From assembly GCA_964016885.1 (NCBI GenBank), contig OZ024756.1, positions 11,346,001 to 11,410,000 on the forward strand: 64,000 bases of DNA, in the 5' to 3' direction. Shown piece after piece: positions 8,213 through 45,790 of this stretch (positions within the stretch are counted from its first letter, which is position 1; each line of letters begins with the position of its first letter). A program made the translations under genes and the position numbers. Source of the stretch: Eledone cirrhosa. Its lineage: Eukaryota. Under the pieces are notes generated by a model that made no database searches, was not told where the DNA came from, and saw nothing but the letters and a program-made list of their open reading frames with translations.

Positions 8213-8213
8213 C

Positions 8214-8356
8214 TGGTACTTTATTTTATCGACCCTGTAAGGATGAAAGGCAAAGTTAACCTTGGCGGGATTTGAACTTAGAATGGCAAGGGCCGTAACT
8301 CTGTGCGTCAAAGCATGGCGTCCGATCCTCTACCGATACTGCCAATCCACCGCCCT
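8214..8356 (-). mobile_element. SINE family A, 3'-truncated
   Basis: TGGTACTTTATTTTATCGACCC...GGATTTGAACT...TACTGCCAATCCACC. Confidence 0.8.
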
Positions 8357-9061
8357 TCTTCCATAAAATAATGGTGGACGGGTTATAGAGAAATAAACAG
8401 CTTTGTATCAGAGAAACAGAAGTGGTTTCAGGCAGTTTGGTAGGAAAACAAGATAAAAATTGAACAAAAAGTTATCATATATATATACCTACACACACAC
8501 ATATATATACTTACATACACTCATGCACATATATATACCTACACACACACATATATATACTTACATACACTCACGCACATATATATACCTACACACACAC
8601 ACATATATATATATAAAGATAAAGTTCCTGTCTGTTTGTTAATTTGTTTGTTCACGAACTTCTCCTATGGTTTTGGAGATAGACCCCCATAACCATATAT
8701 ATTCTGAAACTACATTGCCCAGGGTACTTAGATAAGTATATTTCATTTTAATCAAAGGATTCCCTGGGGGCACAAACCCCTGCTGAAAATCTTTTCCCTT
8801 CGATTTATATGATATTTAAACCATAGATAAATGACAAGAAATGATGGCTATTCACAAAATTGCAGCAAATTTCAATAATATTAAGACACCATAATGGGGG
8901 TTAAACCCCCTATAGTGAACATTTTGGAAGGCCATAACTTGAGTATTGGAACCTCTATTGTCACGGGGGTTTCTATTAATTAAACGTAAATCAACAAAAA
9001 AACCCACCTCTCTTTTATAGTAAAATTTGGCTAATTTAGACATTTTTATCAGACATCCCTT

Positions 9062-9406
9062 ATGCCATGGAAAAGAAAATCCAGTTATGCGAATAATCCA
9101 CATGCAAAAAGGATGAGGCTTCGTTGTCAATCTGAAAGCTGTGATGCAAGGGAAGAACGACTTTCTAGGCATAGACAGAGGCAAACAGAGTCTCGGCAAA
9201 ATGAAAGCTGTGGTGCAAGGGAAGAACGACTTTCTAGGCAAAGACAGAGGCAAACAGACTCTCGGCAAAATGAAAGCTGTGGTGCAAGGGAAGAACGACT
9301 TTCTAGGCAAAGACAGAGGCAAACAGAGTCTCGGCAAAATGAAAGCTGTGGTGCAAGGGAAGAACGACTTTCTAGGCAAAGACAGAGGCAAACAGAGTCT
9401 CGGTAA
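9062..9406 (+). pseudogene. N-terminus of Helitron Rep/helicase-like protein with STPR-like 23-aa repeats
   Basis: MPWKRKSSYANNPHAKRMRLRCQSESCDAREERLSRHRQRQTESRQNES...; ends at the first CAA>TAA unit variant. Confidence 0.6.
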
Positions 9407-12400
9407 AATGAAAGCTGTGATGCAAGGGAAGAACGATTTTCTAGGCAAAGACAGAGGCAAACAGAGTCTCGGCAAAATGAAAGCTGTGGTGCAAGGGAAG
9501 AACGACTTTCTAGGCAAAGACAGAGGCAAACAGAGTCTCGGCAAAATGAAAGCTGTGGTGCAAGGGAAGAACGACTTTCTAGGCAAAGACAGAGGCAAAC
9601 AGAGTCTCGGCAAAATGAAAGCTGTGGTGCAAGGGAAGAACGACTTTCTAGGCAAAGACAGAGGCAAACGGAGTCTCGGTAAAATGAAAGCTGTGGTGCA
9701 AGGGAAGAACGACTTTATAGTCAAAGACAGAGGCAAACAGAGTCTCGGTAAAATGAAAGCTGTGGTGCAAGGGAAGAACGACTTTATAGTCAAAGACAGA
9801 GGCAAACAGAGTCTCAGTAAAATGAAAGCTGTGGTGCAAGGGAAGAACGACTTTATAGTCAAAGACAGAGGCAAACAGAGTCTCGGCAAAATGAAAGCTG
9901 TGATGCAAGGGAAGAACGACTTTTTAGGCAAAGACAGAGGCAAACAGAGTCTCGGTAAAATGAAGGCTGTGGTGCAAGGGAAGAACGACTTTTTAGGCAA
10001 AGACAGAGGCAAACAGAGTCTCGGCAAAATGAAAGCTGTGGTGCAAGGGAAGAACGACTTTCTAGACAAAGACAGAGGCAAACGGAGTCTCGGTAAAATG
10101 AAAGCTGTGGTGCAAGGGAAGAACGACTTTATAGTCAAAGACAGAGGCAAACAGAGTCTCGGTAAAATGAAAGCTGTGGTGCAAGGGAAGAACGACTTTA
10201 TAGTCAAAGACAGAGGCAAACAGAGTCTCAGTAAAATGAAAGCTGTGGTGCAAGGGAAGAACGACTTTATAGTCAAAGACAGAGGCAAACAGAGTCTCGG
10301 CAAAATGAAAGCTGTGATGCAAGGGAAGAACGACTTTTTAGGCAAAGACAGAGGCAAACAGAGTCTCGGTAAAATGAAAGCTGTGGTGCAAGGGAAGAAC
10401 GACTTTTTAGGCAAAGACAGAGGCAAACAGAGTCTCGGTAAAATGAAAGCTGTGGTGCAAGGGAAGAACGACTTTCTAGGCAAAGACAGAGGCAAACAGA
10501 GTCTCGGCAAAATGAAAGCTGTGGTGCAAGGGAAGAACGACTTTCTAGGCAAAGACAGAGGCAAACAGAGTCTCGGTAAAATGAAAGCTGTGGTGCAAGG
10601 GAAGAACGACTTTCTAGGCAAAGACAGAGGCAAACAGAGTCTCGGCAAAATGAAAGCTGTGGTGCAAGGGAAGAACGACTTTCTAGGCAAAGACAGAGGC
10701 AAACAGAGTCTCGGCAAAATGAAAGCTGTGGTGCAAGGGAAGAACGACTTTCTAGGCAAAGACAGAGGCAAACAGAGTCTCGGCAAAATGAAAGCTGTGG
10801 TGCAAGGGAAGAACGACTTTATAGTCAAAGAGAGAGGCAAACAGAGTCTCGGTAAAATGAAAGCTGTGGTGCAAGGGAAGAACGACTTTATAGTCAAAGA
10901 CAGAAGCAAACAGAGTCTCAGTAAAATGAAAGCTGTGGTGCAAGGGAAGAACGACTTTCTAGGCAAAGACAGAGGCAAACAGAGTCTCGGCAAAATGAAA
11001 GCTGTGGTGCAAGGGAAGAACGACTTTCTAGGCAAAGACAGAGGCAAACAGAGTCTCGGTAAAATGAAAGCTGTGATGCAAGGGAAGAACGACTTTTTAG
11101 GCAAAGACAGAGGCAAACAGAGTCTCGGCAAAATGAAAGCTGTGATGCAAGGGAAGAACGACTTTCTAGGCAAAGACAGAGGCAAACAGAGTCTCGGCAA
11201 GATGAAAGCTGTGATGCAAGGGAAGAACGACTTTTTAGGCAAAGACAGAGGCAGACAGAGTATCGGTAAAATGAAAGCTGTGGTGCAAGGGAAGAACGAC
11301 TTTATAGTCAAAGACAGAGGCAAACAGAGTCTCGGTAAAATGAAAGCTGTGATGCAAGGGAAGAACGACTTTCTAGGCAAAGACAGAGTCTCGGCAAAAT
11401 GAAAGCTGTAGTGCAAGGGAAGAACGACTTTCTAGGCAAAGACAGAGGCAAACAGAGTCTCGGTAAAATGAAAGCTGTGGTGCAAGGGAAGAACGACTTT
11501 ATAGTCAAAGACAGAGGCAAACAGAGTCTCGGTAAAATGAAAGCTGTGGTGCAAGGGAAGAACGACTTTATAGTCAAAGACAGAGGCAAACAGAGTCTCA
11601 GTAAAATGAAAGCTGTGGTGCAAGGGAAGAACGACTTTATAGTCAAAGACAGAGGCAAACAGAGTCTCGGTAAAATGAAAGCTGTGGTGCAAGGGAAGAA
11701 CGACTTTTTAGTCAAAGACAGAGGCAAACAGAGTCTCGGTAAAATGAAAGCTGTGGTGCAAGGGAAGAACGACTTTATAGTCAAAGACAGAGGCAAACAG
11801 AGTCTCGGTAAAATGAAAGCTGTGGTGCAAGGGAAGAACGACTTTCTAGGCAAAGACAGAGGCAAACAGAGTCTCGGCAAAATGAAAGCTGTGGTGCAAG
11901 GGAAGAACGACTTTCTAGGCAAAGACAGAGGCAAACAGAGTCCCGGCAAAATGAAAGCTGTGGTGCAAGGGAAGAACGACTTTCTAGGCAAAGACAGAGA
12001 CAAACAGAGTCCGGGCAAAATGAAAGCTGTGGTGCAAGGGAAGGACGACTTTCTAGGCAAAGACAGAGGCAAACAGAGTCTCGGCAAAATGAAAGCTGTG
12101 GTGCAAGGGAAGAACGACTTTCTAGGCAAAGACAGAGGCAAACAGAGTCTCGGCAAAATGAAAGCTGTGGTGCAAGGGAAGAACGACTTTCTAGGCAAAG
12201 ACAGAGGCAAACAGAGTCTCGGCAAAATGAAAGCTGTGGTGCAAGGGAAGAACGACTTTCTAGGCAAAGACAGAGGCAAACAGAGTCCCGGCAAAATGAA
12301 AGCTGTGGTGCAAGGGAAGAACGACTTTCTAGGCAAAGACAGAGACAAACAGAGTCCGGGCAAAATGAAAGCTGTGGTGCAAGGGAAGGACGACTTTCTA

Positions 12401-15400
12401 GGCAAAGACAGAGGCAAACAGAGTCTCGGTAAAATGAAAGCTGTGGTGCAAGGGAAGAACGACTTTCTAGGCAAAGACAGAGGCAAACAGAGTCTCGGCA
12501 AAATGAAAGCTATGGTGCAAGGGAAGAACGACTTTCTAGGCAAAGACAGAGGCAAACAGAGTCTCGGCAAAATGAAAGCTGTGGTGCAAGAGAAGAACGA
12601 CTTTCTAGGCAAAGACAGAGGCAAACAGAGTCTCGGCAAAATGAAAGCTGTGGTGCAAGGGAAGAACGACTTTCTAGGCAAAGAAAGAGGCAAACAGAGT
12701 CTCGGTAAAATGAAAGCTGTGGTGCAAGGGAAGAACGACTTTCTAGGCAAAGACAGAGGCAAACAGAGTCTCGGCAAAATGAAAGCTGTAGTGCAAGGGA
12801 AGAACGACTTTCTAGGCAAAGACAGAGGCAAACAGAGTCTCGGCAAAATGAAAGCTGTGGTGCAAGGGAAGAACGACTTTCTAGGCAAAGACAGAGGCAA
12901 ACAGAGTCTCGGTAACATGAAAGCTGTGGTGCAAGGGAAGAACGACTTTCTAGGCAAAGACAGAGGCAAACAGAGTCTCGGCAAAATGAAAGCTGTGGTG
13001 CAAGGGAAGAACGACTTTCTAGGCAAAGACAGAGGCAAACAGAGTCTCGGCAAAATGAAAGCTGTGGTGCAAGGGAAGAACGACTTTCTAGGCAAAGACA
13101 GAGGCAAACAGAGTCTCGGTAACATGAAAGCTGTGGTGCAAGGGAAGAACGACTTTCTAGGCAAAGACAGAGGCAAACAGAGTCTCGGCAAAATGAAAGC
13201 TGTGGTGCAAGGGAAGAACGACTTTCTAGGCAAAAACAGAGGCAAACAGAGTCTCGGTAAAATGAAAGCTGTGGTGCAAGGGAAGAACGACTTTATAGTC
13301 AAAGACAGAGGCAAACAGAGTCTCGGTAAAATGAAAGCTGTGGTGCATTGAAGAACGACTTTATAGTCAAAGACAGAGGCAAACAGAGTCTCAGTAAAAT
13401 GAAAGCTGTGGTGCAAGGGAAGAACGACTTTTTAGGCAAAGACAGAGGCAAACAGAGTCTCGGTAAAATGAAAGCTGTGCTGCAAGGGAAGAACGACTTT
13501 TTAGGCAAAGACAGAGGCAAACAGAGTCTCGGTAAAATGAAAGCTGTGGTGCAAGGTAAGAACGACTTTCTAGGCAAAGACAGAGGCAAACAGAGTCTCG
13601 GCAAAATGAAAGCTGTGGTGCAAGGGAGGAACGACTTTCTAGGCAAAGACAGAGGCAAACAGAGTCTCGGTAAAATGAAAGCTATGGTGCAAGGGAAGAA
13701 CGACTTTCTAGGCAAAGACAGAGGCAAACAGAGTCTCGGCAAAATGAAAGCTGTGATGCAAGGGAAGAACGACTTTCTAGGCAAAGACAGAGGCAAACAG
13801 AGTCTCGGCAAAATGAAAGCTGTGGTGCAAGGGAAGAACGACTTTCTAGGCTAAGACAGAGGCAAACAGAGTCTCGGTAAAATGAAAGCTGTGGTGCAAG
13901 GGAAGAACGACTTTCTAGGCAAAGACAGAGGCAAACAGAGTCTCGGCAAAATGAAAGCTGTGGTGCAAGAGAAGAACGACTTTCTAGGCAAAGACAGAGG
14001 CAAACAGAGTCTCGGCAAAATGAAAGCTGTGGTGCAAGGGAGGAACGACTTTCTAGGCAAAGACAGAGGCAAACAGAGTCTCGGCAAAATAAAAGCTGTG
14101 GTGCAAGGGAAGAACGACTTTATAGTCAAAGACAGAGCCAAACAGAGTCTCAGGAAAATGAAAGCTGTGGTGCAAGGGAAGAACGACTTTATAGTCAAAG
14201 ACAGAGGCAAACAGAGTCTCGGTAAAATGAAAGCTGTGGTGCAAGGGAAGAACGACTTTATAGTCAAAGACAGAGGCAAACAGAGTCTCGGTAAAATGAA
14301 AGCTGTGGTGCAAGGGAAGAACGACTTTCTAGGCAAAGACAGAGGCAAACAGAGTCTCGGCAAAATGAAAGCTGTGGTGCAAGGGAAGAACGACTTTCTA
14401 GGCAAAGACAGAGGCAAACGGAGTCTCGGTAAAATGAAAGCTGTGGTGCAAGGGAAGAACGACTTTATAGTCAAAGACAGAGGCAAACAGAGTCTCGGTA
14501 AAATGAAAGCTGTGGTGCAAGGGAAGAACGACTTTATAGTCAAAGACAGAGGCAAACAGAGTCTCAGTAAAATGAAAGCTGTGGTGCAAGGGAAGAACGA
14601 CTTTATAGTCAAAGACAGAGGCAAACAGAGTCTCGGCAAAATGAAAGCTGTGATGCAAGGGAAGAACGACTTTTTAGGCAAAGACAGAGGCAAACAGAGT
14701 CTCGGTAAAATGAAGGCTGTGGTGCAAGGGAAGAACGACTTTTTAGGCAAAGACAGAGGCAAACAGAGTCTCGGCAAAATGAAAGCTGTGGTGCAAGGGA
14801 AGAACGACTTTCTAGACAAAGACAGAGGCAAACGGAGTCTCGGTAAAATGAAAGCTGTGGTGCAAGGGAAGAACGACTTTATAGTCAAAGACAGAGGCAA
14901 ACAGAGTCTCGGTAAAATGAAAGCTGTGGTGCAAGGGAAGAACGACTTTATAGTCAAAGACAGAGGCAAACAGAGTCTCAGTAAAATGAAAGCTGTGGTG
15001 CAAGGGAAGAACGACTTTATAGTCAAAGACAGAGGCAAACAGAGTCTCGGCAAAATGAAAGCTGTGATGCAAGGGAAGAACGACTTTTTAGGCAAAGACA
15101 GAGGCAAACAGAGTCTCGGTAAAATGAAAGCTGTGGTGCAAGGGAAGAACGACTTTTTAGGCAAAGACAGAGGCAAACAGAGTCTCGGTAAAATGAAAGC
15201 TGTGGTGCAAGGGAAGAACGACTTTCTAGGCAAAGACAGAGGCAAACAGAGTCTCGGCAAAATGAAAGCTGTGGTGCAAGGGAAGAACGACTTTCTAGGC
15301 AAAGACAGAGGCAAACAGAGTCTCGGTAAAATGAAAGCTGTGGTGCAAGGGAAGAACGACTTTCTAGGCAAAGACAGAGGCAAACAGAGTCTCGGCAAAA

Positions 15401-18400
15401 TGAAAGCTGTGGTGCAAGGGAAGAACGACTTTCTAGGCAAAGACAGAGGCAAACAGAGTCTCGGCAAAATGAAAGCTGTGGTGCAAGGGAAGAACGACTT
15501 TCTAGGCAAAGACAGAGGCAAACAGAGTCTCGGCAAAATGAAAGCTGTGGTGCAAGGGAAGAACGACTTTATAGTCAAAGAGAGAGGCAAACAGAGTCTC
15601 GGTAAAATGAAAGCTGTGGTGCAAGGGAAGAACGACTTTATAGTCAAAGACAGAAGCAAACAGAGTCTCAGTAAAATGAAAGCTGTGGTGCAAGGGAAGA
15701 ACGACTTTCTAGGCAAAGACAGAGGCAAACAGAGTCTCGGCAAAATGAAAGCTGTGGTGCAAGGGAAGAACGACTTTCTAGGCAAAGACAGAGGCAAACA
15801 GAGTCTCGGTAAAATGAAAGCTGTGATGCAAGGGAAGAACGACTTTTTAGGCAAAGACAGAGGCAAACAGAGTCTCGGCAAAATGAAAGCTGTGATGCAA
15901 GGGAAGAACGACTTTCTAGGCAAAGACAGAGGCAAACAGAGTCTCGGCAAGATGAAAGCTGTGATGCAAGGGAAGAACGACTTTTTAGGCAAAGACAGAG
16001 GCAGACAGAGTATCGGTAAAATGAAAGCTGTGGTGCAAGGGAAGAACGACTTTATAGTCAAAGACAGAGGCAAACAGAGTCTCGGTAAAATGAAAGCTGT
16101 GATGCAAGGGAAGAACGACTTTCTAGGCAAAGACAGAGTCTCGGCAAAATGAAAGCTGTAGTGCAAGGGAAGAACGACTTTCTAGGCAAAGACAGAGGCA
16201 AACAGAGTCTCGGTAAAATGAAAGCTGTGGTGCAAGGGAAGAACGACTTTATAGTCAAAGACAGAGGCAAACAGAGTCTCGGTAAAATGAAAGCTGTGGT
16301 GCAAGGGAAGAACGACTTTATAGTCAAAGACAGAGGCAAACAGAGTCTCAGTAAAATGAAAGCTGTGGTGCAAGGGAAGAACGACTTTATAGTCAAAGAC
16401 AGAGGCAAACAGAGTCTCGGTAAAATGAAAGCTGTGGTGCAAGGGAAGAACGACTTTTTAGTCAAAGACAGAGGCAAACAGAGTCTCGGTAAAATGAAAG
16501 CTGTGGTGCAAGGGAAGAACGACTTTATAGTCAAAGACAGAGGCAAACAGAGTCTCGGTAAAATGAAAGCTGTGGTGCAAGGGAAGAACGACTTTCTAGG
16601 CAAAGACAGAGGCAAACAGAGTCTCGGCAAAATGAAAGCTGTGGTGCAAGGGAAGAACGACTTTCTAGGCAAAGACAGAGGCAAACAGAGTCCCGGCAAA
16701 ATGAAAGCTGTGGTGCAAGGGAAGAACGACTTTCTAGGCAAAGACAGAGACAAACAGAGTCCGGGCAAAATGAAAGCTGTGGTGCAAGGGAAGGACGACT
16801 TTCTAGGCAAAGACAGAGGCAAACAGAGTCTCGGCAAAATGAAAGCTGTGGTGCAAGGGAAGAACGACTTTCTAGGCAAAGACAGAGGCAAACAGAGTCT
16901 CGGCAAAATGAAAGCTGTGGTGCAAGGGAAGAACGACTTTCTAGGCAAAGACAGAGGCAAACAGAGTCTCGGCAAAATGAAAGCTGTGGTGCAAGGGAAG
17001 AACGACTTTCTAGGCAAAGACAGAGGCAAACAGAGTCCCGGCAAAATGAAAGCTGTGGTGCAAGGGAAGAACGACTTTCTAGGCAAAGACAGAGACAAAC
17101 AGAGTCCGGGCAAAATGAAAGCTGTGGTGCAAGGGAAGGACGACTTTCTAGGCAAAGACAGAGGCAAACAGAGTCTCGGTAAAATGAAAGCTGTGGTGCA
17201 AGGGAAGAACGACTTTCTAGGCAAAGACAGAGGCAAACAGAGTCTCGGCAAAATGAAAGCTGTGGTGCAAGGGAAGAACGACTTTCTAGGCAAAGACAGA
17301 GGCAAACAGAGTCTCGGCAAAATGAAAGCTGTGGTGCAAGAGAAGAACGACTTTCTAGGCAAAGACAGAGGCAAACAGAGTCTCGGCAAAATGAAAGCTG
17401 TGGTGCAAGGGAAGAACGACTTTCTAGGCAAAGAAAGAGGCAAACAGAGTCTCGGTAAAATGAAAGCTGTGGTGCAAGGGAAGAACGACTTTCTAGGCAA
17501 AGACAGAGGCAAACAGAGTCTCGGCAAAATGAAAGCTGTAGTGCAAGGGAAGAACGACTTTCTAGGCAAAGACAGAGGCAAACAGAGTCTCGGCAAAATG
17601 AAAGCTGTGGTGCAAGGGAAGAACGACTTTCTAGGCAAAGACAGAGGCAAACAGAGTCTCGGTAACATGAAAGCTGTGGTGCAAGGGAAGAACGACTTTC
17701 TAGGCAAAGACAGAGGCAAACAGAGTCTCGGCAAAATGAAAGCTGTGGTGCAAGGGAAGAACGACTTTCTAGGCAAAGACAGAGGCAAACAGAGTCTCGG
17801 CAAAATGAAAGCTGTGGTGCAAGGGAAGAACGACTTTCTAGGCAAAGACAGAGGCAAACAGAGTCTCGGTAACATGAAAGCTGTGGTGCAAGGGAAGAAC
17901 GACTTTCTAGGCAAAGACAGAGGCAAACAGAGTCTCGGCAAAATGAAAGCTGTGGTGCAAGGGAAGAACGACTTTCTAGGCAAAAACAGAGGCAAACAGA
18001 GTCTCGGTAAAATGAAAGCTGTGGTGCAAGGGAAGAACGACTTTATAGTCAAAGACAGAGGCAAACAGAGTCTCGGTAAAATGAAAGCTGTGGTGCATTG
18101 AAGAACGACTTTATAGTCAAAGACAGAGGCAAACAGAGTCTCAGTAAAATGAAAGCTGTGGTGCAAGGGAAGAACGACTTTTTAGGCAAAGACAGAGGCA
18201 AACAGAGTCTCGGTAAAATGAAAGCTGTGCTGCAAGGGAAGAACGACTTTTTAGGCAAAGACAGAGGCAAACAGAGTCTCGGTAAAATGAAAGCTGTGGT
18301 GCAAGGTAAGAACGACTTTCTAGGCAAAGACAGAGGCAAACAGAGTCTCGGCAAAATGAAAGCTGTGGTGCAAGGGAGGAACGACTTTCTAGGCAAAGAC

Positions 18401-21400
18401 AGAGGCAAACAGAGTCTCGGTAAAATGAAAGCTATGGTGCAAGGGAAGAACGACTTTCTAGGCAAAGACAGAGGCAAACAGAGTCTCGGCAAAATGAAAG
18501 CTGTGATGCAAGGGAAGAACGACTTTCTAGGCAAAGACAGAGGCAAACAGAGTCTCGGCAAAATGAAAGCTGTGGTGCAAGGGAAGAACGACTTTCTAGG
18601 CTAAGACAGAGGCAAACAGAGTCTCGGTAAAATGAAAGCTGTGGTGCAAGGGAAGAACGACTTTCTAGGCAAAGACAGAGGCAAACAGAGTCTCGGCAAA
18701 ATGAAAGCTGTGGTGCAAGAGAAGAACGACTTTCTAGGCAAAGACAGAGGCAAACAGAGTCTCGGCAAAATGAAAGCTGTGGTGCAAGGGAGGAACGACT
18801 TTCTAGGCAAAGACAGAGGCAAACAGAGTCTCGGCAAAATAAAAGCTGTGGTGCAAGGGAAGAACGACTTTATAGTCAAAGACAGAGCCAAACAGAGTCT
18901 CAGGAAAATGAAAGCTGTGGTGCAAGGGAAGAACGACTTTATAGTCAAAGACAGAGGCAAACAGAGTCTCGGCAAAATGAAAGCTGTGGTGCAAGGGAAG
19001 AACGACTTTCTAGGCAAAGACAGAGGCAAACAGAGTCTCGGCAAAATGAAAGCTGTGGTGCAAGGGAAGAACGACTTTCTAGGCAAAGACAGAGGCAAAC
19101 AGAGTCTCGGTAAAATGAAAGCTGTGGTGCAAGGGAAGAACGACTTTCTAGGCAAAGACAGAGGCAAACAGAGTCTCGGCAAAATGAAAGCTGTGGTGCA
19201 AGGGAAGAACGACTTTATAGTCAAAGACAGAGCCAAACAGAGTCTCGGTAAAATGAAAGCTGTGGTGCAAGGGAAGAACGACTTTCTAGGCAAAGACAGA
19301 GGCAAACAGAGTCTCGGCAAAATGAAAGCTGTGGTGCAAGGGAAGAACGACTTTCTAGGCAAAGACAGAGGCAAACAGAGTCTCGGCAAAATGAAAGCTG
19401 TGGTGCAAGAGAAGAACGACTTTCTAGGCAAAGACAGAGGCAAACAGAGTCTCGGCAAAATGAAAGCTGTGGTGCAAGGGAAGAACGACTTTCTAGGCAA
19501 AGAAAGAGGCAAACAGAGTCTCGGTAAAATGAAAGCTGTGGTGCAAGGGAAGAACGACTTTCTAGGCAAAGACAGAGGCAAACAGAGTCTCGGCAAAATG
19601 AAAGCTGTAGTGCAAGGGAAGAACGACTTTCTAGGCAAAGACAGAGGCAAACAGAGTCTCGGCAAAATGAAAGCTGTGGTGCAAGGGAAGAACGACTTTC
19701 TAGGCAAAGACAGAGGCAAACAGAGTCTCGGTAACATGAAAGCTGTGGTGCAAGGGAAGAACGACTTTCTAGGCAAAGACAGAGGCAAACAGAGTCTCGG
19801 CAAAATGAAAGCTGTGGTGCAAGGGAAGAACGACTTTCTAGGCAAAGACAGAGGCAAACAGAGTCTCGGCAAAATGAAAGCTGTGGTGCAAGGGAAGAAC
19901 GACTTTCTAGGCAAAGACAGAGGCAAACAGAGTCTCGGTAACATGAAAGCTGTGGTGCAAGGGAAGAACGACTTTCTAGGCAAAGACAGAGGCAAACAGA
20001 GTCTCGGCAAAATGAAAGCTGTGGTGCAAGGGAAGAACGACTTTCTAGGCAAAAACAGAGGCAAACAGAGTCTCGGTAAAATGAAAGCTGTGGTGCAAGG
20101 GAAGAACGACTTTATAGTCAAAGACAGAGGCAAACAGAGTCTCGGTAAAATGAAAGCTGTGGTGCATTGAAGAACGACTTTATAGTCAAAGACAGAGGCA
20201 AACAGAGTCTCAGTAAAATGAAAGCTGTGGTGCAAGGGAAGAACGACTTTTTAGGCAAAGACAGAGGCAAACAGAGTCTCGGTAAAATGAAAGCTGTGCT
20301 GCAAGGGAAGAACGACTTTTTAGGCAAAGACAGAGGCAAACAGAGTCTCGGTAAAATGAAAGCTGTGGTGCAAGGTAAGAACGACTTTCTAGGCAAAGAC
20401 AGAGGCAAACAGAGTCTCGGCAAAATGAAAGCTGTGGTGCAAGGGAGGAACGACTTTCTAGGCAAAGACAGAGGCAAACAGAGTCTCGGTAAAATGAAAG
20501 CTATGGTGCAAGGGAAGAACGACTTTCTAGGCAAAGACAGAGGCAAACAGAGTCTCGGCAAAATGAAAGCTGTGATGCAAGGGAAGAACGACTTTCTAGG
20601 CAAAGACAGAGGCAAACAGAGTCTCGGCAAAATGAAAGCTGTGGTGCAAGGGAAGAACGACTTTCTAGGCTAAGACAGAGGAAAACAGAGTCTCGGTAAA
20701 ATGAAAGCTGTGGTGCAAGGGAAGAACGACTTTCTAGGCAAAGACAGAGGCAAACAGAGTCTCGGCAAAATGAAAGCTGTGGTGCAAGAGAAGAACGACT
20801 TTCTAGGCAAAGACAGAGGCAAACAGAGTCTCGGCAAAATGAAAGCTGTGGTGCAAGGGAGGAACGACTTTCTAGGCAAAGACAGAGGCAAACAGAGTCT
20901 CGGCAAAATAAAAGCTGTGGTGCAAGGGAAGAACGACTTTATAGTCAAAGACAGAGCCAAACAGAGTCTCAGGAAAATGAAAGCTGTGGTGCAAGGGAAG
21001 AACGACTTTATAGTCAAAGACAGAGGCAAACAGAGTCTCGGCAAAATGAAAGCTGTGGTGCAAGGGAAGAACGACTTTCTAGGCAAAGACAGAGGCAAAC
21101 AGAGTCTCGGCAAAATGAAAGCTGTGGTGCAAGGGAAGAACGACTTTCTAGGCAAAGACAGAGGCAAACAGAGTCTCGGTAAAATGAAAGCTGTGGTGCA
21201 AGGGAAGAACGACTTTCTAGGCAAAGACAGAGGCAAACAGAGTCTCGGCAAAATGAAAGCTGTGGTGCAAGGGAAGAACGACTTTATAGTCAAAGACAGA
21301 GCCAAACAGAGTCTCGGTAAAATGAAAGCTGTGGTGCAAGGGAAGAACGACTTTATAGTCAAAGACAGAGGCAAACAGAGTCTCGGTAAAATGAAAGCTG

Positions 21401-33400: not shown

Positions 33401-36400
33401 TGAAAGCTGTGATGCAAGGGAAGAACGACTTTCTAGGCAAAGACAGAGGCAAACAGAGTCTCGGCAAAATGAAAGCTGTGGTGCAAGTGAAGAACGACTT
33501 TCTAGGCAAAGACAGAGGCAAACAGAGTCTCGGTAAAATGAAAGCTGTGGTGCAAGGGAAGAACGACTTTCTAGGCAAAGACAGAGGCAAACAGAGTCTC
33601 GGTAAAATGAAAGCGGTGATGCAAGGGAAGAACGACTTTCTAGGCAAAGACAGAGGCAAACAGAGTCTCGGCAAAATGAAAGCTGTGGTGCAAGTGAAGA
33701 ACGACTTTCTAGGCAAAGACAGAGGCAAACAGAGTCTCGGCAAAATGAAAGCTGTGATGCAAGGGAAGAACGACTTTCTAGGCAAAGACAGAGGCAAACA
33801 GAGTCTCGGCAAAATGAAAGCTGTGGTGCAAGTGAAGAACGACTTTCTAGGCAAAGACAGAGGCAAACAGAGTCTCGGTAAAATGAAAGCTGTGGTGCAA
33901 GGGAAGAACGACTTTCTAGGCAAAGACAGAGGCAAACAGAGTCTCGGTAAAATGAAAGCGGTGATGCAAGGGAAGAACGACATTCTAGTCAAAGACAGAG
34001 GCAAACAGAGTCTCGGCAAAATGAAAGCTGTGGTGCAAGGGAAGAACGACTTTCTAGACAAAGACAGAGGCAAACAGAGTCTCGGCAAAATGAAAGCTGT
34101 GGTGCAAGGGAAGAACGACCTTCTAGGCAAAGACAGAGGCAAACAGAGTCTCGGCAAAATGAAAGCTGTGATGCAAGGGAAGAACGACTTTCTAGGCAAA
34201 AACAGAGGCAAACAGAGTCTCGGTAAAATGAAAGCTGTGGTGCAAGGGAAGAACGACCTTCTAGGCAAAGACAGAGGCAAACAGAGTCTCGGCAAAATGA
34301 AAGCTGTGGTGCAAGGGAAGAACGACTTTTTAGTCAAAGACAGAGGCAAACAGAGTCTCGGCAAAATGAAAGCTGTGGTGCAAGGGAAGAACGACTTTCT
34401 AGTCAAAGACAGAGGCAAACAGAGTCTCGGTAAAATGAAAGCTGTGGTGCAAGGGAAGAAGGACTTTCTAGGCAAAGACAGAGGCAAACAGAGTCTCGGT
34501 AAAATGAAAGCTGTGGTGCAAGGGAAGAACGACTTTCTAGTCAAAGACAGAGGCAAACAGAGTCTCGGCAAAATGAAAGCTGTGGTGCAAGGGAAGAACG
34601 ACTTTTTAGTCAAAGACAGAGGCAAACAGAGTCTCGGCAAAATGAAAGCTGTGGTGCAAGGGAAGAAGGACTTTCTAGACAAAGACAGAGGCAAACAGAG
34701 TCTCGGCAAAATGAAAGCTGTGGTGCAAGGGAAGAACGACTTTCTAGGCAAAGACAGAGGCAAACAGAGTCTCGGCAAAATGAAAGCTGTGATGCAAGGG
34801 AAGAACGACTTTCTAGTCAAAGACAGAGGCAAACAGAGTCTCGGCAAAATGAAAGCTGTGGTGCAAGAGAAGAAGGACTTTCTAGGCAAAGACAGAGGCA
34901 AACAGAGTCTCGGCAAAATGAAAGCTGTGATGCAAGGGAAGAACGACTTTCTAGGCAAAGACAGAGGCAAACAGAGTCTCGGCAAAATGAAAGCTGTGAT
35001 GCAAGGGAAGAACGACTTTCTAGGCAAAGACAGAGGCAAACAGAGTCTCGGCAAAATGAAAGCTGTGGTGCAAGAGAAGAACGACTTTCTAGGCAAAGAC
35101 AGAGGCAAACAGAGTCTCGGCAAAATGAAAGCTGTGGTGCAAGAGAAGAACGACTTTCTAGGCAAAGACAGAGGCAAACAGAGTCTCGGCAAAATGAAAG
35201 CTGTGATGCAAGGGAAGAACGACTTTCTAGGCAAAGACAGAGGCAAACAGAGTCTCGGCAAAATGAAAGCTGTGATGCAAGGGAAGAACGACTTTCTAGG
35301 CAAAGACAGAGGCAAACAGAGTCTCGGCAAAATGAAAGCTGTGGTGCAAGAGAAGAAGGACTTTCTAGGCAAAGACAGAGGCAAACAGAGTCTCGGCAAA
35401 ATGAAAGCTGTGATGCAAGGGAAGAACGACTTTTCTAGGCAAAGACAGAGGCAAACAGAGTCTCGGCAAAATGAAAGCTGTGATGCAAGGGAAGAACGAC
35501 TTTCTAGGCAAAGACAGAGGCAAACAGAGTCTCGGCAAAATGAAAGCTGTGGTGCAAGAGAAGAACGACTTTCTAGGCAAAGACAGAGGCAAACAGAGTC
35601 TCGGCAAAATGAAAGCTGTGGTGCAAGAGAAGAAGGACTTTCTAGGCAAAGACAGAGGCAAACAGAGTCTCGGCAAAATGAAAGCTGTGATTGCAAGGGA
35701 AGAACGACTTTCTAGGCAAAGACAGAGGCAAACAGTCTCGGCAAAATGAAAGCTGTGATGCAAGGGAAGAACGACTTTCTAGGCAAAGACAGAGGCAAAC
35801 AGAGTCTCGGCAAAATGAAAGCTGTGGTGCAAGAGAAGAACGACTTTCTAGGCAAAGACAGAGGCAAACAGAGTCTCGGCAAAATGAAAGCTGTGATGCA
35901 AGGGAAGAACGACTTTCTAGGCAAAGACAGAGGCAAACAGAGTCTCGGCAAAATGAAAGCTGTGATGCAAGGGAAGAACGACTTTCTAGGCAAAGACAGA
36001 GGCAAACAGAGTCTCGGCAAAATGAAAGCTGTGATGCAAGGGAAGAACGACTTTCTAGGCAAAGACAGAGGCAAACAGAGTCTCGGCAAAATGAAAGCTG
36101 TGGTGCAAGTGAAGAACGACTTTCTAGGCAAAGACAGAGGCAAACAGAGTCTCGGTAAAATGAAAGCTGTGGTGCAAGGGAAGAACGACTTTCTAGGCAA
36201 AGACAGAGGCAAACAGAGTCTCGGTAAAATGAAAGCGGTGATGCAAGGGAAGAACGACTTTCTAGGCAAAGACAGAGGCAAACAGAGTCTCGGCAAAATG
36301 AAAGCTGTGGTGCAAGTGAAGAACGACTTTCTAGGCAAAGACAGAGGCAAACAGAGTCTCGGCAAAATGAAAGCTGTGATGCAAGGGAAGAACGACTTTC

Positions 36401-39400
36401 TAGGCAAAGACAGAGGCAAACAGAGTCTCGGCAAAATGAAAGCTGTGGTGCAAGTGAAGAACGACTTTCTAGGCAAAGACAGAGGCAAACAGAGTCTCGG
36501 TAAAATGAAAGCTGTGGTGCAAGGGAAGAACGACTTTCTAGGCAAAGACAGAGGCAAACAGAGTCTCGGTAAAATGAAAGCGGTGATGCAAGGGAAGAAC
36601 GACATTCTAGTCAAAGACAGAGGCAAACAGAGTCTCGGCAAAATGAAAGCTGTGGTGCAAGGGAAGAACGACTTTCTAGGCAAAGACAGAGGCAAACAGA
36701 GTCTCGGCAAAATGAAAGCTGTGGTGCAAGGGAAGAACGACCTTCTAGGCAAAGACAGAGGCAAACAGAGTCTCGGCAAAATGAAAGCTGTGATGCAAGG
36801 GAAGAACGACTTTCTAGGCAAAAACAGAGGCAAACAGAGTCTCGGTAAAATGAAAGCTGTGGTGCAAGGGAAGAACGACCTTCTAGGCAAAGACAGAGGC
36901 AAACAGAGTCTCGGCAAAATGAAAGCTGTGGTGCAAGGGAAGAACGACTTTCTAGGCAAAGACAGAGGCAAACAGAGTCTCGGTAAAATGAAAGCTGTGG
37001 TGCAAGGGAAGAACGACTTTCTAGGCAAAGACAGAGGCAAACAGAGTCTCGGCAAAATGAAAGCTGTGGTGCAAGGGAAGAACGACTTTCTAGGCAAAGA
37101 CAGAGGCAAACAGAGTCTCGGCAAAATGAAAGCTGTGGTGCAAGGGAAGAACGACTTTCTAGGCAAAGACAGAGGCAAACAGAGTCTCGGTAAAATGAAA
37201 GCGGTGATGCAAGGGAAGAACGACATTCTAGTCAAAGACAGAGGCAAACAGAGTCTCGGCAAAATGAAAGCTGTGGTGCAAGGGAAGAACGACTTTCTAG
37301 GCAAAGACAGAGGCAAACAGAGTCTCGGCAAAATGAAAGCTGTGGTGCAAGGGAAGAACGACCTTCTAGGCAAAGACAGAGGCAAACAGAGTCTCGGCAA
37401 AATGAAAGCTGTGATGCAAGGGAAGAACGACTTTCTAGGCAAAAACAGAGGCAAACAGAGTCTCGGTAAAATGAAAGCTGTGGTGCAAGGGAAGAACGAC
37501 CTTCTAGGCAAAGACAGAGGCAAACAGAGTCTCGGCAAAATGAAAGCTGTGGTGCAAGGGAAGAACGACTTTCTAGGCAAAGACAGAGGCAAACAGAGTC
37601 TCGGTAAAATGAAAGCTGTGGTGCAAGGGAAGAACGACTTTCTAGGCAAAGACAGAGGCAAACAGAGTCTCGGCAAAATGAAAGCTGTGGTGCAAGGGAA
37701 GAACGACTTTCTAGGCAAAGACAGAGGCAAACAGAGTCTCGGCAAAATGAAAGCTGTGGTGCAAGTGAAGAACGACTTTCTAGGCAAAGACAGAGGCAAA
37801 CAGAGTCTCGGTAAAATGAAAGCTGTGGTGCAAGGGAAGAACGACTTTCTAGGCAAAGACAGAGGCAAACAGAGTCTCGGTAAAATGAAAGCGGTGATGC
37901 AAGGGAAGAACGACATTCTAGTCAAAGACAGAGGCAAACAGAGTCTCGGCAAAATGAAAGCTGTGGTGCAAGGGAAGAACGACTTTCTAGACAAAGACAG
38001 AGGCAAACAGAGTCTCGGCAAAATGAAAGCTGTGGTGCAAGGGAAGAACGACCTTCTAGGCAAAGACAGAGGCAAACAGAGTCTCGGCAAAATGAAAGCT
38101 GTGATGCAAGGGAAGAACGACTTTCTAGGCAAAAACAGAGGCAAACAGAGTCTCGGTAAAATGAAAGCTGTGGTGCAAGGGAAGAACGACCTTCTAGGCA
38201 AAGACAGAGGCAAACAGAGTCTCGGCAAAATGAAAGCTGTGGTGCAAGGGAAGAACGACTTTTTAGTCAAAGACAGAGGCAAACAGAGTCTCGGCAAAAT
38301 GAAAGCTGTGGTGCAAGGGAAGAACGACTTTCTAGTCAAAGACAGAGGCAAACAGAGTCTCGGTAAAATGAAAGCTGTGGTGCAAGGGAAGAAGGACTTT
38401 CTAGGCAAAGACAGAGGCAAACAGAGTCTCGGTAAAATGAAAGCTGTGGTGCAAGGGAAGAACGACTTTCTAGTCAAAGACAGAGGCAAACAGAGTCTCG
38501 GCAAAATGAAAGCTGTGGTGCAAGGGAAGAACGACTTTTTAGTCAAAGACAGAGGCAAACAGAGTCTCGGCAAAATGAAAGCTGTGGTGCAAGGGAAGAA
38601 GGACTTTCTAGACAAAGACAGAGGCAAACAGAGTCTCGGCAAAATGAAAGCTGTGGTGCAAGGGAAGAACGACTTTCTAGGCAAAGACAGAGGCAAACAG
38701 AGTCTCGGCAAAATGAAAGCTGTGATGCAAGGGAAGAACGACTTTCTAGTCAAAGACAGAGGCAAACAGAGTCTCGGCAAAATGAAAGCTGTGGTGCAAG
38801 AGAAGAAGGACTTTCTAGGCAAAGACAGAGGCAAACAGAGTCTCGGCAAAATGAAAGCTGTGATGCAAGGGAAGAACGACTTTCTAGGCAAAGACAGAGG
38901 CAAACAGAGTCTCGGCAAAATGAAAGCTGTGATGCAAGGGAAGAACGACTTTCTAGGCAAAGACAGAGGCAAACAGAGTCTCGGCAAAATGAAAGCTGTG
39001 GTGCAAGAGAAGAACGACTTTCTAGGCAAAGACAGAGGCAAACAGAGTCTCGGCAAAATGAAAGCTGTGGTGCAAGAGAAGAACGACTTTCTAGGCAAAG
39101 ACAGAGGCAAACAGAGTCTCGGCAAAATGAAAGCTGTGATGCAAGGGAAGAACGACTTTCTAGGCAAAGACAGAGGCAAACAGAGTCTCGGCAAAATGAA
39201 AGCTGTGATGCAAGGGAAGAACGACTTTCTAGGCAAAGACAGAGGCAAACAGAGTCTCGGCAAAATGAAAGCTGTGGTGCAAGAGAAGAAGGACTTTCTA
39301 GGCAAAGACAGAGGCAAACAGAGTCTCGGCAAAATGAAAGCTGTGATGCAAGGGAAGAACGACTTTCTAGGCAAAGACAGAGGCAAACAGAGTCTCGGCA

Positions 39401-42400
39401 AAATGAAAGCTGTGATGCAAGGGAAGAACGACTTTCTAGGCAAAGACAGAGGCAAACAGAGTCTCGGCAAAATGAAAGCTGTGGTGCAAGAGAAGAACGA
39501 CTTTCTAGGCAAAGACAGAGGCAAACAGAGTCTCGGCAAAATGAAAGCTGTGGTGCAAGAGAAGAAGGACTTTCTAGGCAAAGACAGAGGCAAACAGAGT
39601 CTCGGCAAAATGAAAGCTGTGATGCAAGGGAAGAACGACTTTCTAGGCAAAGACAGAGGCAAACAGAGTCTCGGCAAAATGAAAGCTGTGATGCAAGGGA
39701 AGAACGACTTTCTAGGCAAAGACAGAGGCAAACAGAGTCTCGGCAAAATGAAAGCTGTGGTGCAAGAGAAGAACGACTTTCTAGGCAAAGACAGAGGCAA
39801 ACAGAGTCTCGGCAAAATGAAAGCTGTGATGCAAGGGAAGAACGACTTTCTAGGCAAAGACAGAGGCAAACAGAGTCTCGGCAAAATGAAAGCTGTGATG
39901 CAAGGGAAGAACGACTTTCTAGGCAAAGACAGAGGCAAACAGAGTCTCGGCAAAATGAAAGCTGTGATGCAAGGGAAGAACGACTTTCTAGGCAAAGACA
40001 GAGGCAAACAGAGTCTCGGCAAAATGAAAGCTGTGGTGCAAGTGAAGAACGACTTTCTAGGCAAAGACAGAGGCAAACAGAGTCTCGGTAAAATGAAAGC
40101 TGTGGTGCAAGGGAAGAACGACTTTCTAGGCAAAGACAGAGGCAAACAGAGTCTCGGTAAAATGAAAGCGGTGATGCAAGGGAAGAACGACTTTCTAGGC
40201 AAAGACAGAGGCAAACAGAGTCTCGGCAAAATGAAAGCTGTGGTGCAAGTGAAGAACGACTTTCTAGGCAAAGACAGAGGCAAACAGAGTCTCGGCAAAA
40301 TGAAAGCTGTGATGCAAGGGAAGAACGACTTTCTAGGCAAAGACAGAGGCAAACAGAGTCTCGGCAAAATGAAAGCTGTGGTGCAAGTGAAGAACGACTT
40401 TCTAGGCAAAGACAGAGGCAAACAGAGTCTCGGTAAAATGAAAGCTGTGGTGCAAGGGAAGAACGACTTTCTAGGCAAAGACAGAGGCAAACAGAGTCTC
40501 GGTAAAATGAAAGCGGTGATGCAAGGGAAGAACGACATTCTAGTCAAAGACAGAGGCAAACAGAGTCTCGGCAAAATGAAAGCTGTGGTGCAAGGGAAGA
40601 ACGACTTTCTAGGCAAAGACAGAGGCAAACAGAGTCTCGGCAAAATGAAAGCTGTGGTGCAAGGGAAGAACGACCTTCTAGGCAAAGACAGAGGCAAACA
40701 GAGTCTCGGCAAAATGAAAGCTGTGATGCAAGGGAAGAACGACTTTCTAGGCAAAAACAGAGGCAAACAGAGTCTCGGTAAAATGAAAGCTGTGGTGCAA
40801 GGGAAGAACGACCTTCTAGGCAAAGACAGAGGCAAACAGAGTCTCGGTAAAATGAAAGCTGTGGTGCAAGGGAAGAACGACTTTTTAGTCAAAGACAGAG
40901 GCAAACAGAGTCTCGGCAAAATGAAAGGTGTGATGCAAGGGAAGAACGACTTTCTAGGCAAAGACAGAGGCAAACAGAGTCTCGGTAAAATGAAAGCTGT
41001 GGTGCAAGGGAAGAACGACCTTCTAGTCAAAGACAGAGGCAAACAGAGTCTCGGCAAAATGAAAGCTGTGGTGCAAGGGAAGAACGACTTTCTAGTCAAA
41101 GACAGAGGCAAACAGAGTCTCGGCAAAATGAAAGGTGTGATGCAAGGGAAGAGCGACTTTCTAGACAAAGACAGAGGCAAACAGAGTCTCGGCAAAATGA
41201 AAGCTGTGGTGCAAGGGAAGAAGGACTTTCTAGGCAAAGACAGAGGCAAACAGAGTCTCGGCAAAATGAAAGCTGTGGTGCAAGGGAAGAAGGACTTTCT
41301 AGACAAAGACAGAGGCAAACAGAGTCTCGGCAAAATGAAAGCTGTGGTGCAAGGGAAGAAGGACTTTCTAGACAAAGACCGAGGCAAACAGAGTCTCGGC
41401 AAAATGAAAGCTGTGGTGCAAGGGAAGAACGACTTTCTAGGCAAAGACAGAGGCAAACAGAGTCTCGGCAAAATGAAAGCTGTGGTGCAAGGGAAGAACG
41501 ACTTTCTAGACAAAGACAGAGGCAAACAGAGTCTCGGCAAAATGAAAGCTGTGGTGCAAGGGAAGAACGACTTTCTAGGCAAAGACAGAGGCAAACAGAG
41601 TCTCGGCAAAATGAAAGGTGTGGTGCAAGGGAAGAACGACTTTCTAGGCAAAGACAGAGGCAAACAGAGTCTCGGCAAAATGAAAGCTGTGGTGCAAGGG
41701 AAGAACGACTTTCTAGGCAAAGACAGAGGCAAACAGAGTCTCGGCAAAATGAAAGCTGTGGTGCAAGGGAAGAACGACTTTCTAGGCAAAGACAGAGGCA
41801 AACAGAGTCTCGGCAAAATGAAAGCTGTGGTGCAAGGGAAGAACGACTTTCTAGGCAAAGACAGAGGCAAACAGAGTCTCGGCAAAATGAAAGCTGTGGT
41901 GCAAGGGAAGAACGACTTTCTAGGCAAAGACAGAGGCAAACAGAGTCTCGGCAAAATGAAAGCTGTGGTGCAAGGGAAGAACGACTTTCTAGGCAAAGAC
42001 AGAGGCAAACAGAGTCTCGGCAAAATGAAAGCTGTGGTGCAAGGGAAGAACGACTTTCTAGGCAAAGACAGAGGCAAACAGAGTCTCGGCAAAATGAAAG
42101 CTGTGGTGCAAGGGAAGAACGACTTTCTAGGCAAAGACAGAGGCAAACAGAGTCTCGGCAAAATGAAAGCTGTGGTGCAAGGGAAGAACGACTTTCTAGG
42201 CAAAGACAGAGGCAAACAGAGTCTCGGCAAAATGAAAGCTGTGGTGCAAGGGAAGAACGACTTTCTAGGCAAAGACAGAGGCAAACAGAGTCTCGGCAAA
42301 ATGAAAGGTGTGGTGCAAGGGAAGAACGACTTTCTAGGCAAAGACAGAGGCAAACAGAGTCTCGGCAAAATGAAAGCTGTGGTGCAAGGGAAGAACGACT

Positions 42401-44238
42401 TTCTAGGCAAAGACAGAGGCAAACAGAGTCTCGGCAAAATGAAAGCTGTGGTGCAAGGGAAGAACGACTTTCTAGGCAAAGACAGAGGCAAACAGAGTCT
42501 CGGCAAAATGAAAGCTGTGGTGCAAGGGAAGAACGACTTTCTAGGCAAAGACAGAGGCAAACAGAGTCTCGGCAAAATGAAAGCTGTGGTGCAAGGGAAG
42601 AACGACTTTCTAGGCAAAGACAGAGGCAAACAGAGTCTCGGCAAAATGAAAGCTGTGGTGCAAGGGAAGAACGACTTTCTAGGCAAAGACAGAGGCAAAC
42701 AGAGTCTCGGCAAAATGAAAGCTGTGGTGCAAGGGAAGAACGACTTTCTAGGCAAAGACAGAGGCAAACAGAGTCTCGGCAAAATGAAAGCTGTGGTGCA
42801 AGGGAAGAACGACTTTCTAGGCAAAGACAGAGGCAAACAGAGTCTCGGTAAAATGAAAGCTGTGGTGCAAGGGAAGAACGACTTTCTAGGCAAAGACAGA
42901 GGCAAACAGAGTCTCGGCAAAATGAAAGCTGTGGTGCAAGGGAAGAACGACTTTCTAGGCAAAGACAGAGGCAAACAGAGTCTCGGTAAAATGAAAGCGG
43001 TGATGCAAGGGAAGAACGACTTTCTAGGCAAAGACAGAGGCAAACAGAGTCTCGGCAAAATGAAAGCTGTGATGCAAGGGAAGAACGACTTTCTAGGCAA
43101 AGACAGAGGCAAACAGAGTCTCGGCAAAATGAAAGCTGTGGTGCAAGGGAAGAACGACCTTCTAGGCAAAGACAGAGGCAAACAGAGTCTCGGCAAAATG
43201 AAAGCTGTGATGCAAGGGAAGAACGACTTTCTAGGCAAAAGCAGAGGCAAACAGAGTCTCGGTAAAATGAAAGCTGTGGTGCAAGGGAAGAACGACCTTC
43301 TAGGCAAAGACAGAGGCAAACAGAGTCTCGGCAAAATGAAAGCTGTGGTGCAAGGGAAGAACGACTTTCTAGGCAAAGACAGAGGCAAACAGAGTCTCGG
43401 CAAAATGAAAGCTGTGGTGCAAGGGAAGAACGACTTTCTAGGCAAAGACAGAGGCAAACAGAGTCTCGGCAAAATGAAAGCTGTGGTGCAAGGGAAGAAC
43501 GACTTTCTAGGCAAAGACAGAGGCAAACAGAGTCTCGGCAAAATGAAAGCTGTGGTGCAAGGGAAGAACGACTTTCTAGGCAAAGACAGAGGCAAACAGA
43601 GTCTTGGTAAAATGAAAGCTGTGGTGCAAGGGAAGAACGACTTTCTAGGCAAAGACAGAGGCAAACAGAGTCTCGGCAAAATGAAAGCTGTGATGCAAGG
43701 GAAGAACGACTTTCTAGGCAAAGACAGAGGCAAACAGAGTCTCGGCAAAATGAAAGCTGTGGTGCAAGGGAAGAACGACTTTCTAGGCAAAGACAGAGGC
43801 AAACAGAGTCTCGGTAAAATGAAAGCTGTGGTGCAAGGGAAGAACGACTTTCTAGGCAAAGACAGAGGCAAACAGAGTCTCGGTAAAACGAAAGCTGTGA
43901 TGCAAGGGAAGAACGACTTTCTAGGCAAAGACAGAGGCAAACAGAGTCTCGGTAAAATGAAAGCTGTGGTGCAAGGGAAGAACGACTTTCTAGGCAAAGA
44001 CAGAGGCAAACAGAGTCTCGGTAAAATGAAAGCTGTGAATCAAAGGAAGAACGACTTTATAGTCAAAGACAGAGGCAAACAGAGTCTCGGTAAAATGAAA
44101 GCTGTGATGCAAAGGAAGAACGACTTTATAGTCAAAGACAGAGGCAAACAGAGTCTCGGTAAAATGAAAGCTGTGATGCAAGGGAAGAACGACTTTATAG
44201 TCAAAGACAGAGGCAAACAGAGTCTCGGTAAAATGAAA
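9134..44238 (+). repeat. 69-bp satellite array, about 509 units, with higher-order structure
   Basis: Consensus GAAAGCTGTGGTGCAAGGGAAGAACGACTTTCTAGGCAAAGACAGAGGCAAACAGAGTCTCGGCAAAAT, head-to-tail with few substitutions. Confidence 0.99.
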
Positions 44239-44348
44239 CCTTTGGTGAGCATCAGGAAAGACAGGAACAAGATAGTTTTCGTCATATAGTTGCAAGAAGA
44301 AATGACTCTGAAGATAAAAGACAACAGCGTTTGATTGCTGATGTGTGA
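44232..44348 (+). pseudogene. Diverged STPR-like repeats continuing after the array
   Basis: Same frame as the ESCGAREERL reading: NETFGEHQERQEQDSFRHIVARR-NDSEDKRQQRLIADV*, keeping the 23-aa spacing. Confidence 0.65.
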
Positions 44349-44394
44349 AACACAGCAAGGCGCGGGTAATTCGGCTAGTATATATATATATATA

Positions 44395-44920
44395 CGGTAG
44401 CCACGGAATAGGCAGACCCAGAAAAACCTGGGACGAGCTGATAAATTCCGACCTCACACACTTACACCTCACCAAGACAATGTCACTGGACCGAGACCTT
44501 TGGCGGTACTCAGTAATAGAGAAGACCCGCCTTACCTAAATACAAAGTAAAACCTACTACAGTCAGTAGGCATCTCTAATAAAATACACCCCCCTCCCAT
44601 CCACACTGCCCCTTTCAATGTAAAGTTATGTTGGTGCCACAACATCCAGGCCGAAACAAATGAGATCGTGTAGGTGTCACGTAAAAAAAACACACAGTTC
44701 ACGCTGTAATGTGGCCGTGTAGGCAACACGGTAAAAACCTCCTAGCCCCACACTGTAAATGTGGTTGGTGTTAGGAAGGGCATCCAGCTGTAGAAAACCC
44801 GCCAGATAGTCCTATGCGAGCAAGATAACCACTCTTGCCTCAAGTGGGAAAACCCTCCGTCCAAACCCATGCAAGCATGGAACACGGACGTTAAACGATG
44901 ATGATGATGATGATGATGAT
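44395..44920 (+). mobile_element. RTE-type LINE 3' end followed by a SINE-B-like tail
   Basis: GRPRKTWDELINSDL...DRDLWR; downstream GGTTGGTGTTAGGAAGGGCATCCAGCTGTAGAAA and (GAT)n tail. Confidence 0.7.

Positions 44921-45747: not shown

Positions 45748-45790
<43 letters not shown>

Follow-up and report, generated by a model that had tools for sequence, protein, structure and literature searches.

Tandem repeats at the center of Helitrons are known to give rise to satellites, and satellites are also known to arise from the open reading frames (ORFs) of transposons (passages of PMC9659126, PMC7492417, and bioRxiv 10.64898/2026.08.08.743475). In DINE-TR1 of Drosophila and Cg_HINE of Crassostrea gigas, a tandem array lies inside a non-autonomous rolling-circle element; Cg_HINE elements are Helentrons, mostly with units of 140 to 180 bp and on average 2.3 to 5 units per array, and the passages dealing with the two families describe their arrays as central repeats, not as codons of a transposase (PMC9659126, PMC7492417). 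Monomers that stem from transposable-element coding DNA are described for CficCl-61-40 (Tnp2 of CACTA), PROsat (ORF2 of L1), and a rye satellite with gag, none of which is traced to a Helitron ORF in the passage concerned (PMC9659126). Here, we analyze a 64,000-nucleotide stretch of the Eledone cirrhosa genome (contig OZ024756.1, positions 11,346,001 to 11,410,000; the window, to whose first letter all coordinates refer), which holds a satellite whose 69-bp unit is almost certainly a piece of a Helitron RepHel gene. It differs from Cg_HINE and DINE-TR1 in its coding 69-bp unit, its 509 copies, and its HLE1-like end, and from the satellites of coding origin in that its monomer corresponds to exactly one protein repeat, both junctions are in register, and the single-copy state is known.

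We regard the conversion of a transposase protein repeat into a neutral satellite as real and well supported. Rarely can a satellite be observed at its origin while the sequence that gave rise to it is still intact; at this locus, both junctions are preserved in register, the one-copy ancestor is known, and nested duplications record the growth of the array. No satellite made of RepHel codons was found in the literature searched, the scope of which lay outside Repbase and supplements, so that supplementary repeat libraries may hold the unit. The journal text of HELIANO (PMC11417382) contains neither "satellite" nor "tandem repeat," and passages of PMC5714489, PMC13130569, PMC7754599, PMC13404089, and PMC8967140 mention neither such a satellite nor a transfer between octopus and lobster.

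The 69-bp array and its protein relatives

Tandem Repeats Finder (TRF) delimits the array at 9133 to 44247, with a period of 69, 509.2 copies, 96% matches, and a score of 64,732. When split at a fixed anchor, it resolves into 509 head-to-tail units on the plus strand (9134 to 44234; 35,101 bases), 499 of which are 69 bp long, with the other 10 being of 59, 68, or 70 bp. There are 89 distinct unit sequences, and units differ from each other at a mean of 2.45 of 69 bases (2.09 between neighbors and 2.67 between units more than 300 apart). The locus thus has the long head-to-tail array of homogenized, neutrally varying monomers that marks satellite DNA. The ATG at 9062 opens 24 codons that encode a basic N-terminal peptide (MPWKRKSSYANNPHAKRMRLRCQS; 9062 to 9133, plus strand) and runs straight into the units in frame, as an earlier reading made from the sequence only had noted. 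This frame ends at a TAA at 9404 to 9406 on the plus strand, where codon 22 of unit 4 has changed from CAA. Downstream of the array, the register of the last unit is kept for 37 further codons (ETFGEHQERQEQDSFRHIVARRNDSEDKRQQRLIADV), followed by a TGA at 44346 to 44348. The sequence-only reading had this as the frame of the ATG carried through; the unit register is indeed the same at both array ends, but there is no single continuous frame, the ATG frame being closed in unit 4 and the frame being broken by 10 indels, with the odd-length units together amounting to −20 nucleotides. Likewise, the unit that it quoted is the majority variant of the array, with Gly at position 4, whereas this position is Asp in the first unit and in the lobster parent.

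To place the unit, the peptide encoded at 9062 to 9403 was searched against proteins of 201 to 2000 residues, with 8,000 candidates scored. It recovered six matches, all from the lobster Homarus americanus (E = 1.6e-19), and the 90% clusters of these matches comprise 10 sequences, every one of them from lobster. The alignment to one of them, P0001, is gapless: its residues 1 to 24 match the pre-array peptide at 20 of 24 positions, residues 25 to 47 match the first unit at 22 of 23, and residues 48 to 83 match the post-array peptide (44235 to 44342, plus strand; the second and part of the third diverged 23-residue repeat) at 31 of 36. The segments abut at 24/25 and 47/48 and together give 73 of 83 identical residues (88%); by the genetic code, one base change suffices for each of the 10 differences. 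In 9 of the 10 lobster proteins compared (P0010 lacks the N terminus, and P0006 was left out), exactly one unit stands directly between the pre-array and post-array peptides, from which a roughly 500-fold amplification of one coding repeat follows, as the sequence-only reading had proposed. A chance origin of the array is excluded by the TRF score together with the protein matches.

The lobster proteins also identify the gene. P0005 continues into a Helitron_like_N domain (65.9 bits; cut-off, 28.9), P0006 also scores above the cut-off, and PF14214 is present in all 120 long relatives of P0005 listed, with PIF1 and Helitron_like_N found together in the five that were scanned; no Pfam family reaches significance in P0001, P0002, or P0004, and P0003 carries a fused helix-turn-helix annotation. 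The Helitron origin claimed by the sequence-only reading thus stands, and the peptides flanking the array match lobster Helitron proteins; a match to a host gene is what it had named as speaking against it. The closest relatives are therefore Homarus americanus Helitrons (KAG7172061.1, KAG7159266.1, KAG7178167.1, and relatives), which share the N-terminal 83 residues at 88% identity and the same three 23-residue repeats in the same order; they differ in that the lobster proteins have the unit once and continue into RepHel, whereas at the Eledone locus it is present 509-fold and the rest is gone. Repeat number varies among the lobster copies themselves (P0002 has 23 additional residues, and P0006 lacks the later repeats). 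On these grounds, we consider it practically certain that the array unit is codons 25 to 47 of a Helitron RepHel gene. Loci related to P0001 were limited to two short metagenome fragments (35%) and one weak viral match, of no use for defining termini, and the exact 23-base pattern of the unit had no matches in viral_contigs and genome_contigs.

The sequence-only reading had further likened the unit to STPR domains, which bind AT-rich DNA in its major groove. Passages of PMC4856987 describe STPRs, as in silkworm FMBP-1, as strictly 23-residue repeats with Glu1, Thr/Ser2, and Arg9 and with DNA contacts through Arg6, Leu10, Tyr16, and Arg20. The unit shares the 23-residue period, Glu1, Ser2, Arg6, Arg9, and Leu10; unlike FMBP-1, it is without Gln5, Tyr16, and Arg20 and shows no sign of expression as a protein. 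At position 1 of the third repeat, the Eledone locus has Asp and lobster has Glu. The Pfam STPR profile PF21107 gave 12.3 bits (E = 0.24) on the 9062 to 9403 translation, below its gathering cut-off of 27, and the Pfam scan found no match to it for 44232 to 44345, for 40989 to 42848, or for the lobster proteins. Judged by its pattern, then, the unit is STPR-like but not a member of PF21107; the likeness holds and the family assignment does not. A search of the Protein Data Bank with P0002 gave no relative of solved structure at E = 10.

According to the passage of HELIANO that treats them, STPRs are almost confined to HLE1 elements (PMC11417382). PF21107 is present in 16 of the 120 listed long relatives of P0005. 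Among the 24 of 120 with two or more motifs, motif spacing is 23 in 54 of 69 cases and a multiple of 23 in 68 of 69, and the best period is 23 in 45 of 107 RepHel N termini, with up to about 12 near-identical copies. The 23-residue periodicity is thus a trait of RepHel proteins. With a 23-column profile, the unit scores 17.7, compared with −14.0 ± 5.2 for shuffles (0 of 5,000 reach it) and −24 to −43 for the other five frames; this is weak support, as the profile was trained on 105 units chosen by a motif shared with the unit, which falls below their 10th percentile (21.9).

Anatomy of the element and growth of the array

Homology to the lobster proteins ends at 44342 (after ...RLIAD; codon 83, 36 codons past the array), where these proteins go on into a Cys-rich region. 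HLE1 elements have a 5' TC and a 3' hairpin followed by CTRR and insert between A and T (passage of PMC11417382). The first CTRR past the homology break is the CTAG at 44375 to 44378, which ends 36 bp after it and is followed by T and (TA)8, so that the CTRR-then-T arrangement is present at 44375 to 44379; per 40 nucleotides of flank, CTAGT is expected 0.02 times and any CTRR 0.42 times. We infer that this CTAG is the true 3' end of a Helitron and that the 36-bp tail (44343 to 44378, plus strand) is likely its 3' terminus, which an internal deletion brought next to the ORF. Neither the HUH Rep nor the PIF1 helicase of an autonomous Helitron is present, homology stopping at codon 83, and tblastn with six RepHel proteins (E = 0.1) recovered no RepHel remnants from the flanks. 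The locus is thus likely an internally deleted copy of an HLE1 Helitron that had inserted into an AT tract.

At the other end, an (AT)6 tract (8603 to 8614) is the presumed left end, the boundary not being fixed, as 8595 to 8653 was skipped as a repeat when the window was compared with contigs of four runs from four organisms (X1, X4, X5, and X6; 4 of 24 listed). The following region (8615 to 9061, plus strand) is a high-copy noncoding interspersed repeat: all four runs cover it, nearly all of the depth falling on about 8654 to 9056, where 1,923 to 9,426 contigs per run are mostly 85 to 99% alike. It likely served the Helitron family as its 5' region, its connection to the parental ORF being our inference. 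In X5 and X6, this abundant 5' family ceases to follow the window at 9046. Contigs over the coding part come from X1 and X5, with faint coverage in X6 and none in X4. The depth in X5 is flat over 9057 to 9210 (the first 47 codons) and drops after one unit, as would that of a single-unit relative, and X5 carries lobster-type residues at 9107, 9125, and 9172. In X1, four contigs return from 8913 to 8756, giving a 158-bp tandem of the noncoding 5' region; the Helitron family may thus seed a second, noncoding array in another organism. Close upstream of the element, at 8062 to 8214, lies a short array (69 bp × 2.2) unrelated to the RepHel unit.

The history that we consider very probable is that one 69-bp RepHel repeat expanded in place to about 509 copies after an internal deletion had removed Rep and helicase. 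It would start from the parent family, which has one copy of the unit among three diverged 23-residue repeats. Everything after codon 83 is missing, and a deletion would have fused this codon with the element's final 36 bp. The 23-codon repeats would be slippage prone in RepHel, with coding holding them to about 1 to 12 near-identical copies, and after the death of the copy, a first duplication could run away. Both the approximately 12 copies reached by intact RepHel and the gain and loss of repeats among lobster copies suggest a unit unstable by nature, the limit on which the loss of coding would lift. Variation is neutral, and more than half of the array lies in exact multi-kilobase duplicates; unequal exchange or replication slippage would have enlarged the array, adding single units at first and later blocks of 30 to 95 units.

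Several observations weigh against this history. The 3' hairpin is weak (44335 to 44380, −7.7 kcal/mol, z = −2.1, 6 of 200 shuffles; z = −1.5 for the 36-bp tail alone and −1.2 in another window), and the (AT)6 tract lacks the expected TC at its start, the nearest TC lying at 8571 and 8626; we accordingly treat the termini as likely, not proven, and do not claim an intact mobile element. Among the contigs listed, none spans the interval between the high-copy 5' region and the ATG (9046 to 9062). The lobster comparison is at the protein level only, with parent DNA outside it. A motif match is absent from 76 of the 120 long RepHel relatives, and 53 of the 107 N termini have no clear period. That deletion came first and amplification second is an assumption. 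Finally, the array length is that of the assembly, as no run contains half of the words of the 5' stretch (best, 0.18), and exact multi-kilobase duplicates can also be assembly errors.

The best-surviving alternative accepts the coding origin and differs solely in the mode of growth and spread: a mobile non-autonomous Helitron already contained the unit as a short tandem array, which was dispersed and extended by rolling-circle transposition, and the locus is one long member of a dispersed central-repeat family. Cg_HINE and DINE-TR1 are precedents (passages of PMC7492417 and PMC9659126), and the CTAG end lies just past the array. Moreover, unit depth in X1 is 2,267 to 5,231, compared with 38 to 163 on the codons just upstream, and continues into unit 2, hinting at amplification in another organism, although contig depth is no copy number. 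The window holds no second copy of the 8615 to 9061 region, nor is there a second copy of the element within 29 kb of flank. The array itself bears on the question as well. Blocks recur at lags of 69, 95, 57, 38, and 30 units. At 9543 to 18972, a 4,680-bp segment recurs with a single mismatch after 4,750 bp; at 30947 to 40612, 3,111 bp is identical at a lag of 6,555 bp (95 units), and a 1,676-bp part of it is present in three identical copies (31136, 33758, and 37691); a further duplicated block of 2,121 bp also has one mismatch. Lags this varied and nested are more readily explained by unequal exchange or slippage than by one rolling circle, which would give a single period, and we therefore judge a dispersed family to be unlikely and prefer expansion in place.

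A second alternative, that the array is real but far shorter and its multi-kilobase blocks were multiplied by the assembler, draws on the 19,821 of 35,101 bases (56%) that lie in exact duplicates of at least 1 kb and on the host reads being outside the comparison. However, the 89 distinct units, the position dependence of variant frequencies, the isolated mismatches that tell duplicated blocks apart, and a private variant of 68 bp located at block positions are all at odds with it, and more than 200 units would be left even without the exact duplicates. We consider this explanation improbable, and on the preferred one of in-place expansion, the blocks are products of the array's own growth.

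Coding capacity of the array

An in-register stop is present in 176 of the 499 full-length units (35%), 171 of them sharing the CAA-to-TAA change seen in unit 4, and the longest stretch of stop-clean units is 26. Distinct variants are synonymous, nonsynonymous, and stop in a ratio of 13:39:3, compared with 45:151:11 possible. The variation of the array is neutral, and the array shows no sign of coding; it is selfish noncoding satellite DNA and not a polyprotein gene, and no function for the host is indicated. The stop counts and the neutral variant spectrum refute the array as a coding sequence. No RNA run was among those listed as sharing words with the 5' stretch, a result that has no bearing on expression. 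Stop-free frames of up to 2,857 codons (minus strand) occur at 35712 to 44289 and elsewhere in the array, as the unit is free of stop codons in those other frames. Such arrays thus present multi-kilobase open frames and spurious domain matches, a warning to gene callers and annotators. Pfam matches of Gag_p6 to the repeats (27.4 and 28.3 bits; cut-off, 27) were rejected as low-complexity scores summed over repeats.

That the locus is instead a host STPR transcription factor gene (akin to FMBP-1 or ZNF821), or that the array is expressed as a giant repeat protein, is scarcely credible: it could appeal to the open frames just explained, to the STPR name of the nearest Atlas cluster (0.89; recognition, 1851; a lead only), and to two lobster proteins with the same N terminus that are automatically named "Zinc finger protein 821-like," but this N terminus continues into Cys-rich and Helitron_like_N regions in other lobster copies, and the stops, 10 indels, and neutral spectrum speak against it. 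The two proteins so named, P0002 and P0007, are lobster Helitron fragments, and their names are likely misannotations caused by the STPR-like repeats. The sequence-only reading had overlooked this neutral decay, and likewise the loss of the remaining RepHel sequence by deletion, the terminal CTAG, the duplicated blocks, and how closely the peptides match lobster.

Probable horizontal transfer and other repeats of the window

The lobster N terminus is matched at 73 of 83 positions at the Eledone locus, compared with at most 34 of 83 (median, 14) in 266 other Helitron-type proteins, and only three lobster proteins are more than 68% identical to P0005 (among the best 150 of 1.84 billion representatives). 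Among 103 matches to a Penelope ORF of the window, the only named animal is Octopus bimaculoides (63%). With a cephalopod host, this degree of identity to lobster would imply horizontal transfer, which is well documented for Helitrons (passage of PMC2997563), and we think a non-decapod host plus transfer rather probable. No transfer of a Helitron between octopus and lobster was found in the literature searched, with most subscription journals outside its scope; if the host is a cephalopod, this would add a mollusc-crustacean Helitron transfer.

More speculatively, a Helitron that moved between the cephalopod and lobster lineages may have carried a satellite seed with it, in the form of the exon-internal 69-bp unit of its own DNA-binding repeat, which runs away once a copy dies and, as X1 hints, in more than one species. 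RepHel STPR-like repeats might then be a general and as yet unnamed origin of 69-bp animal satellites, the length of the monomer being dictated by protein structure. We put this forward tentatively and as a doubtful extension; it predicts that the 69-bp satellites of other animals are worth translating and comparing with RepHel N termini. At one locus of this kind, it could be measured how fast monomers mutate, arrays grow, and higher-order repeats form.

The window is rich in other repeats. A second transposon-derived array at 48974 to 50792 (48 bp × 38) has a unit about 80% like a repeat resembling short interspersed nuclear elements (SINEs) that is interspersed at 287 to 550, 44664 to 44920, and 60694 to 60850. 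Another SINE-like repeat is present in at least five copies that are 88 to 98% alike (1 to 167, 626 to 826, 5647 to 5835, 8213 to 8351, and 45561 to 45764). The SINE-like repeats resemble those of octopods, although five short motifs taken from them were found in no paper by full-text search. Additional arrays lie at 6847 to 7988 (28 bp × 41), 3511 to 3985 (159 bp × 3), and 52560 to 53069 (156 bp × 3.3). Penelope-like ORFs with Pfam matches to reverse transcriptase and GIY-YIG domains are found at 2203 to 3456 (plus strand), 58138 to 59640 (plus strand), and 57953 to 58216 (minus strand), and those at 54466 to 56125 (minus strand) and 45919 to 46419 (plus strand) resemble Penelope reverse transcriptase/GIY-YIG by eye, with no Pfam match. 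Immediately upstream of the ORF at 58138 to 59640 lies a partial copy of its 3' portion in inverted orientation.

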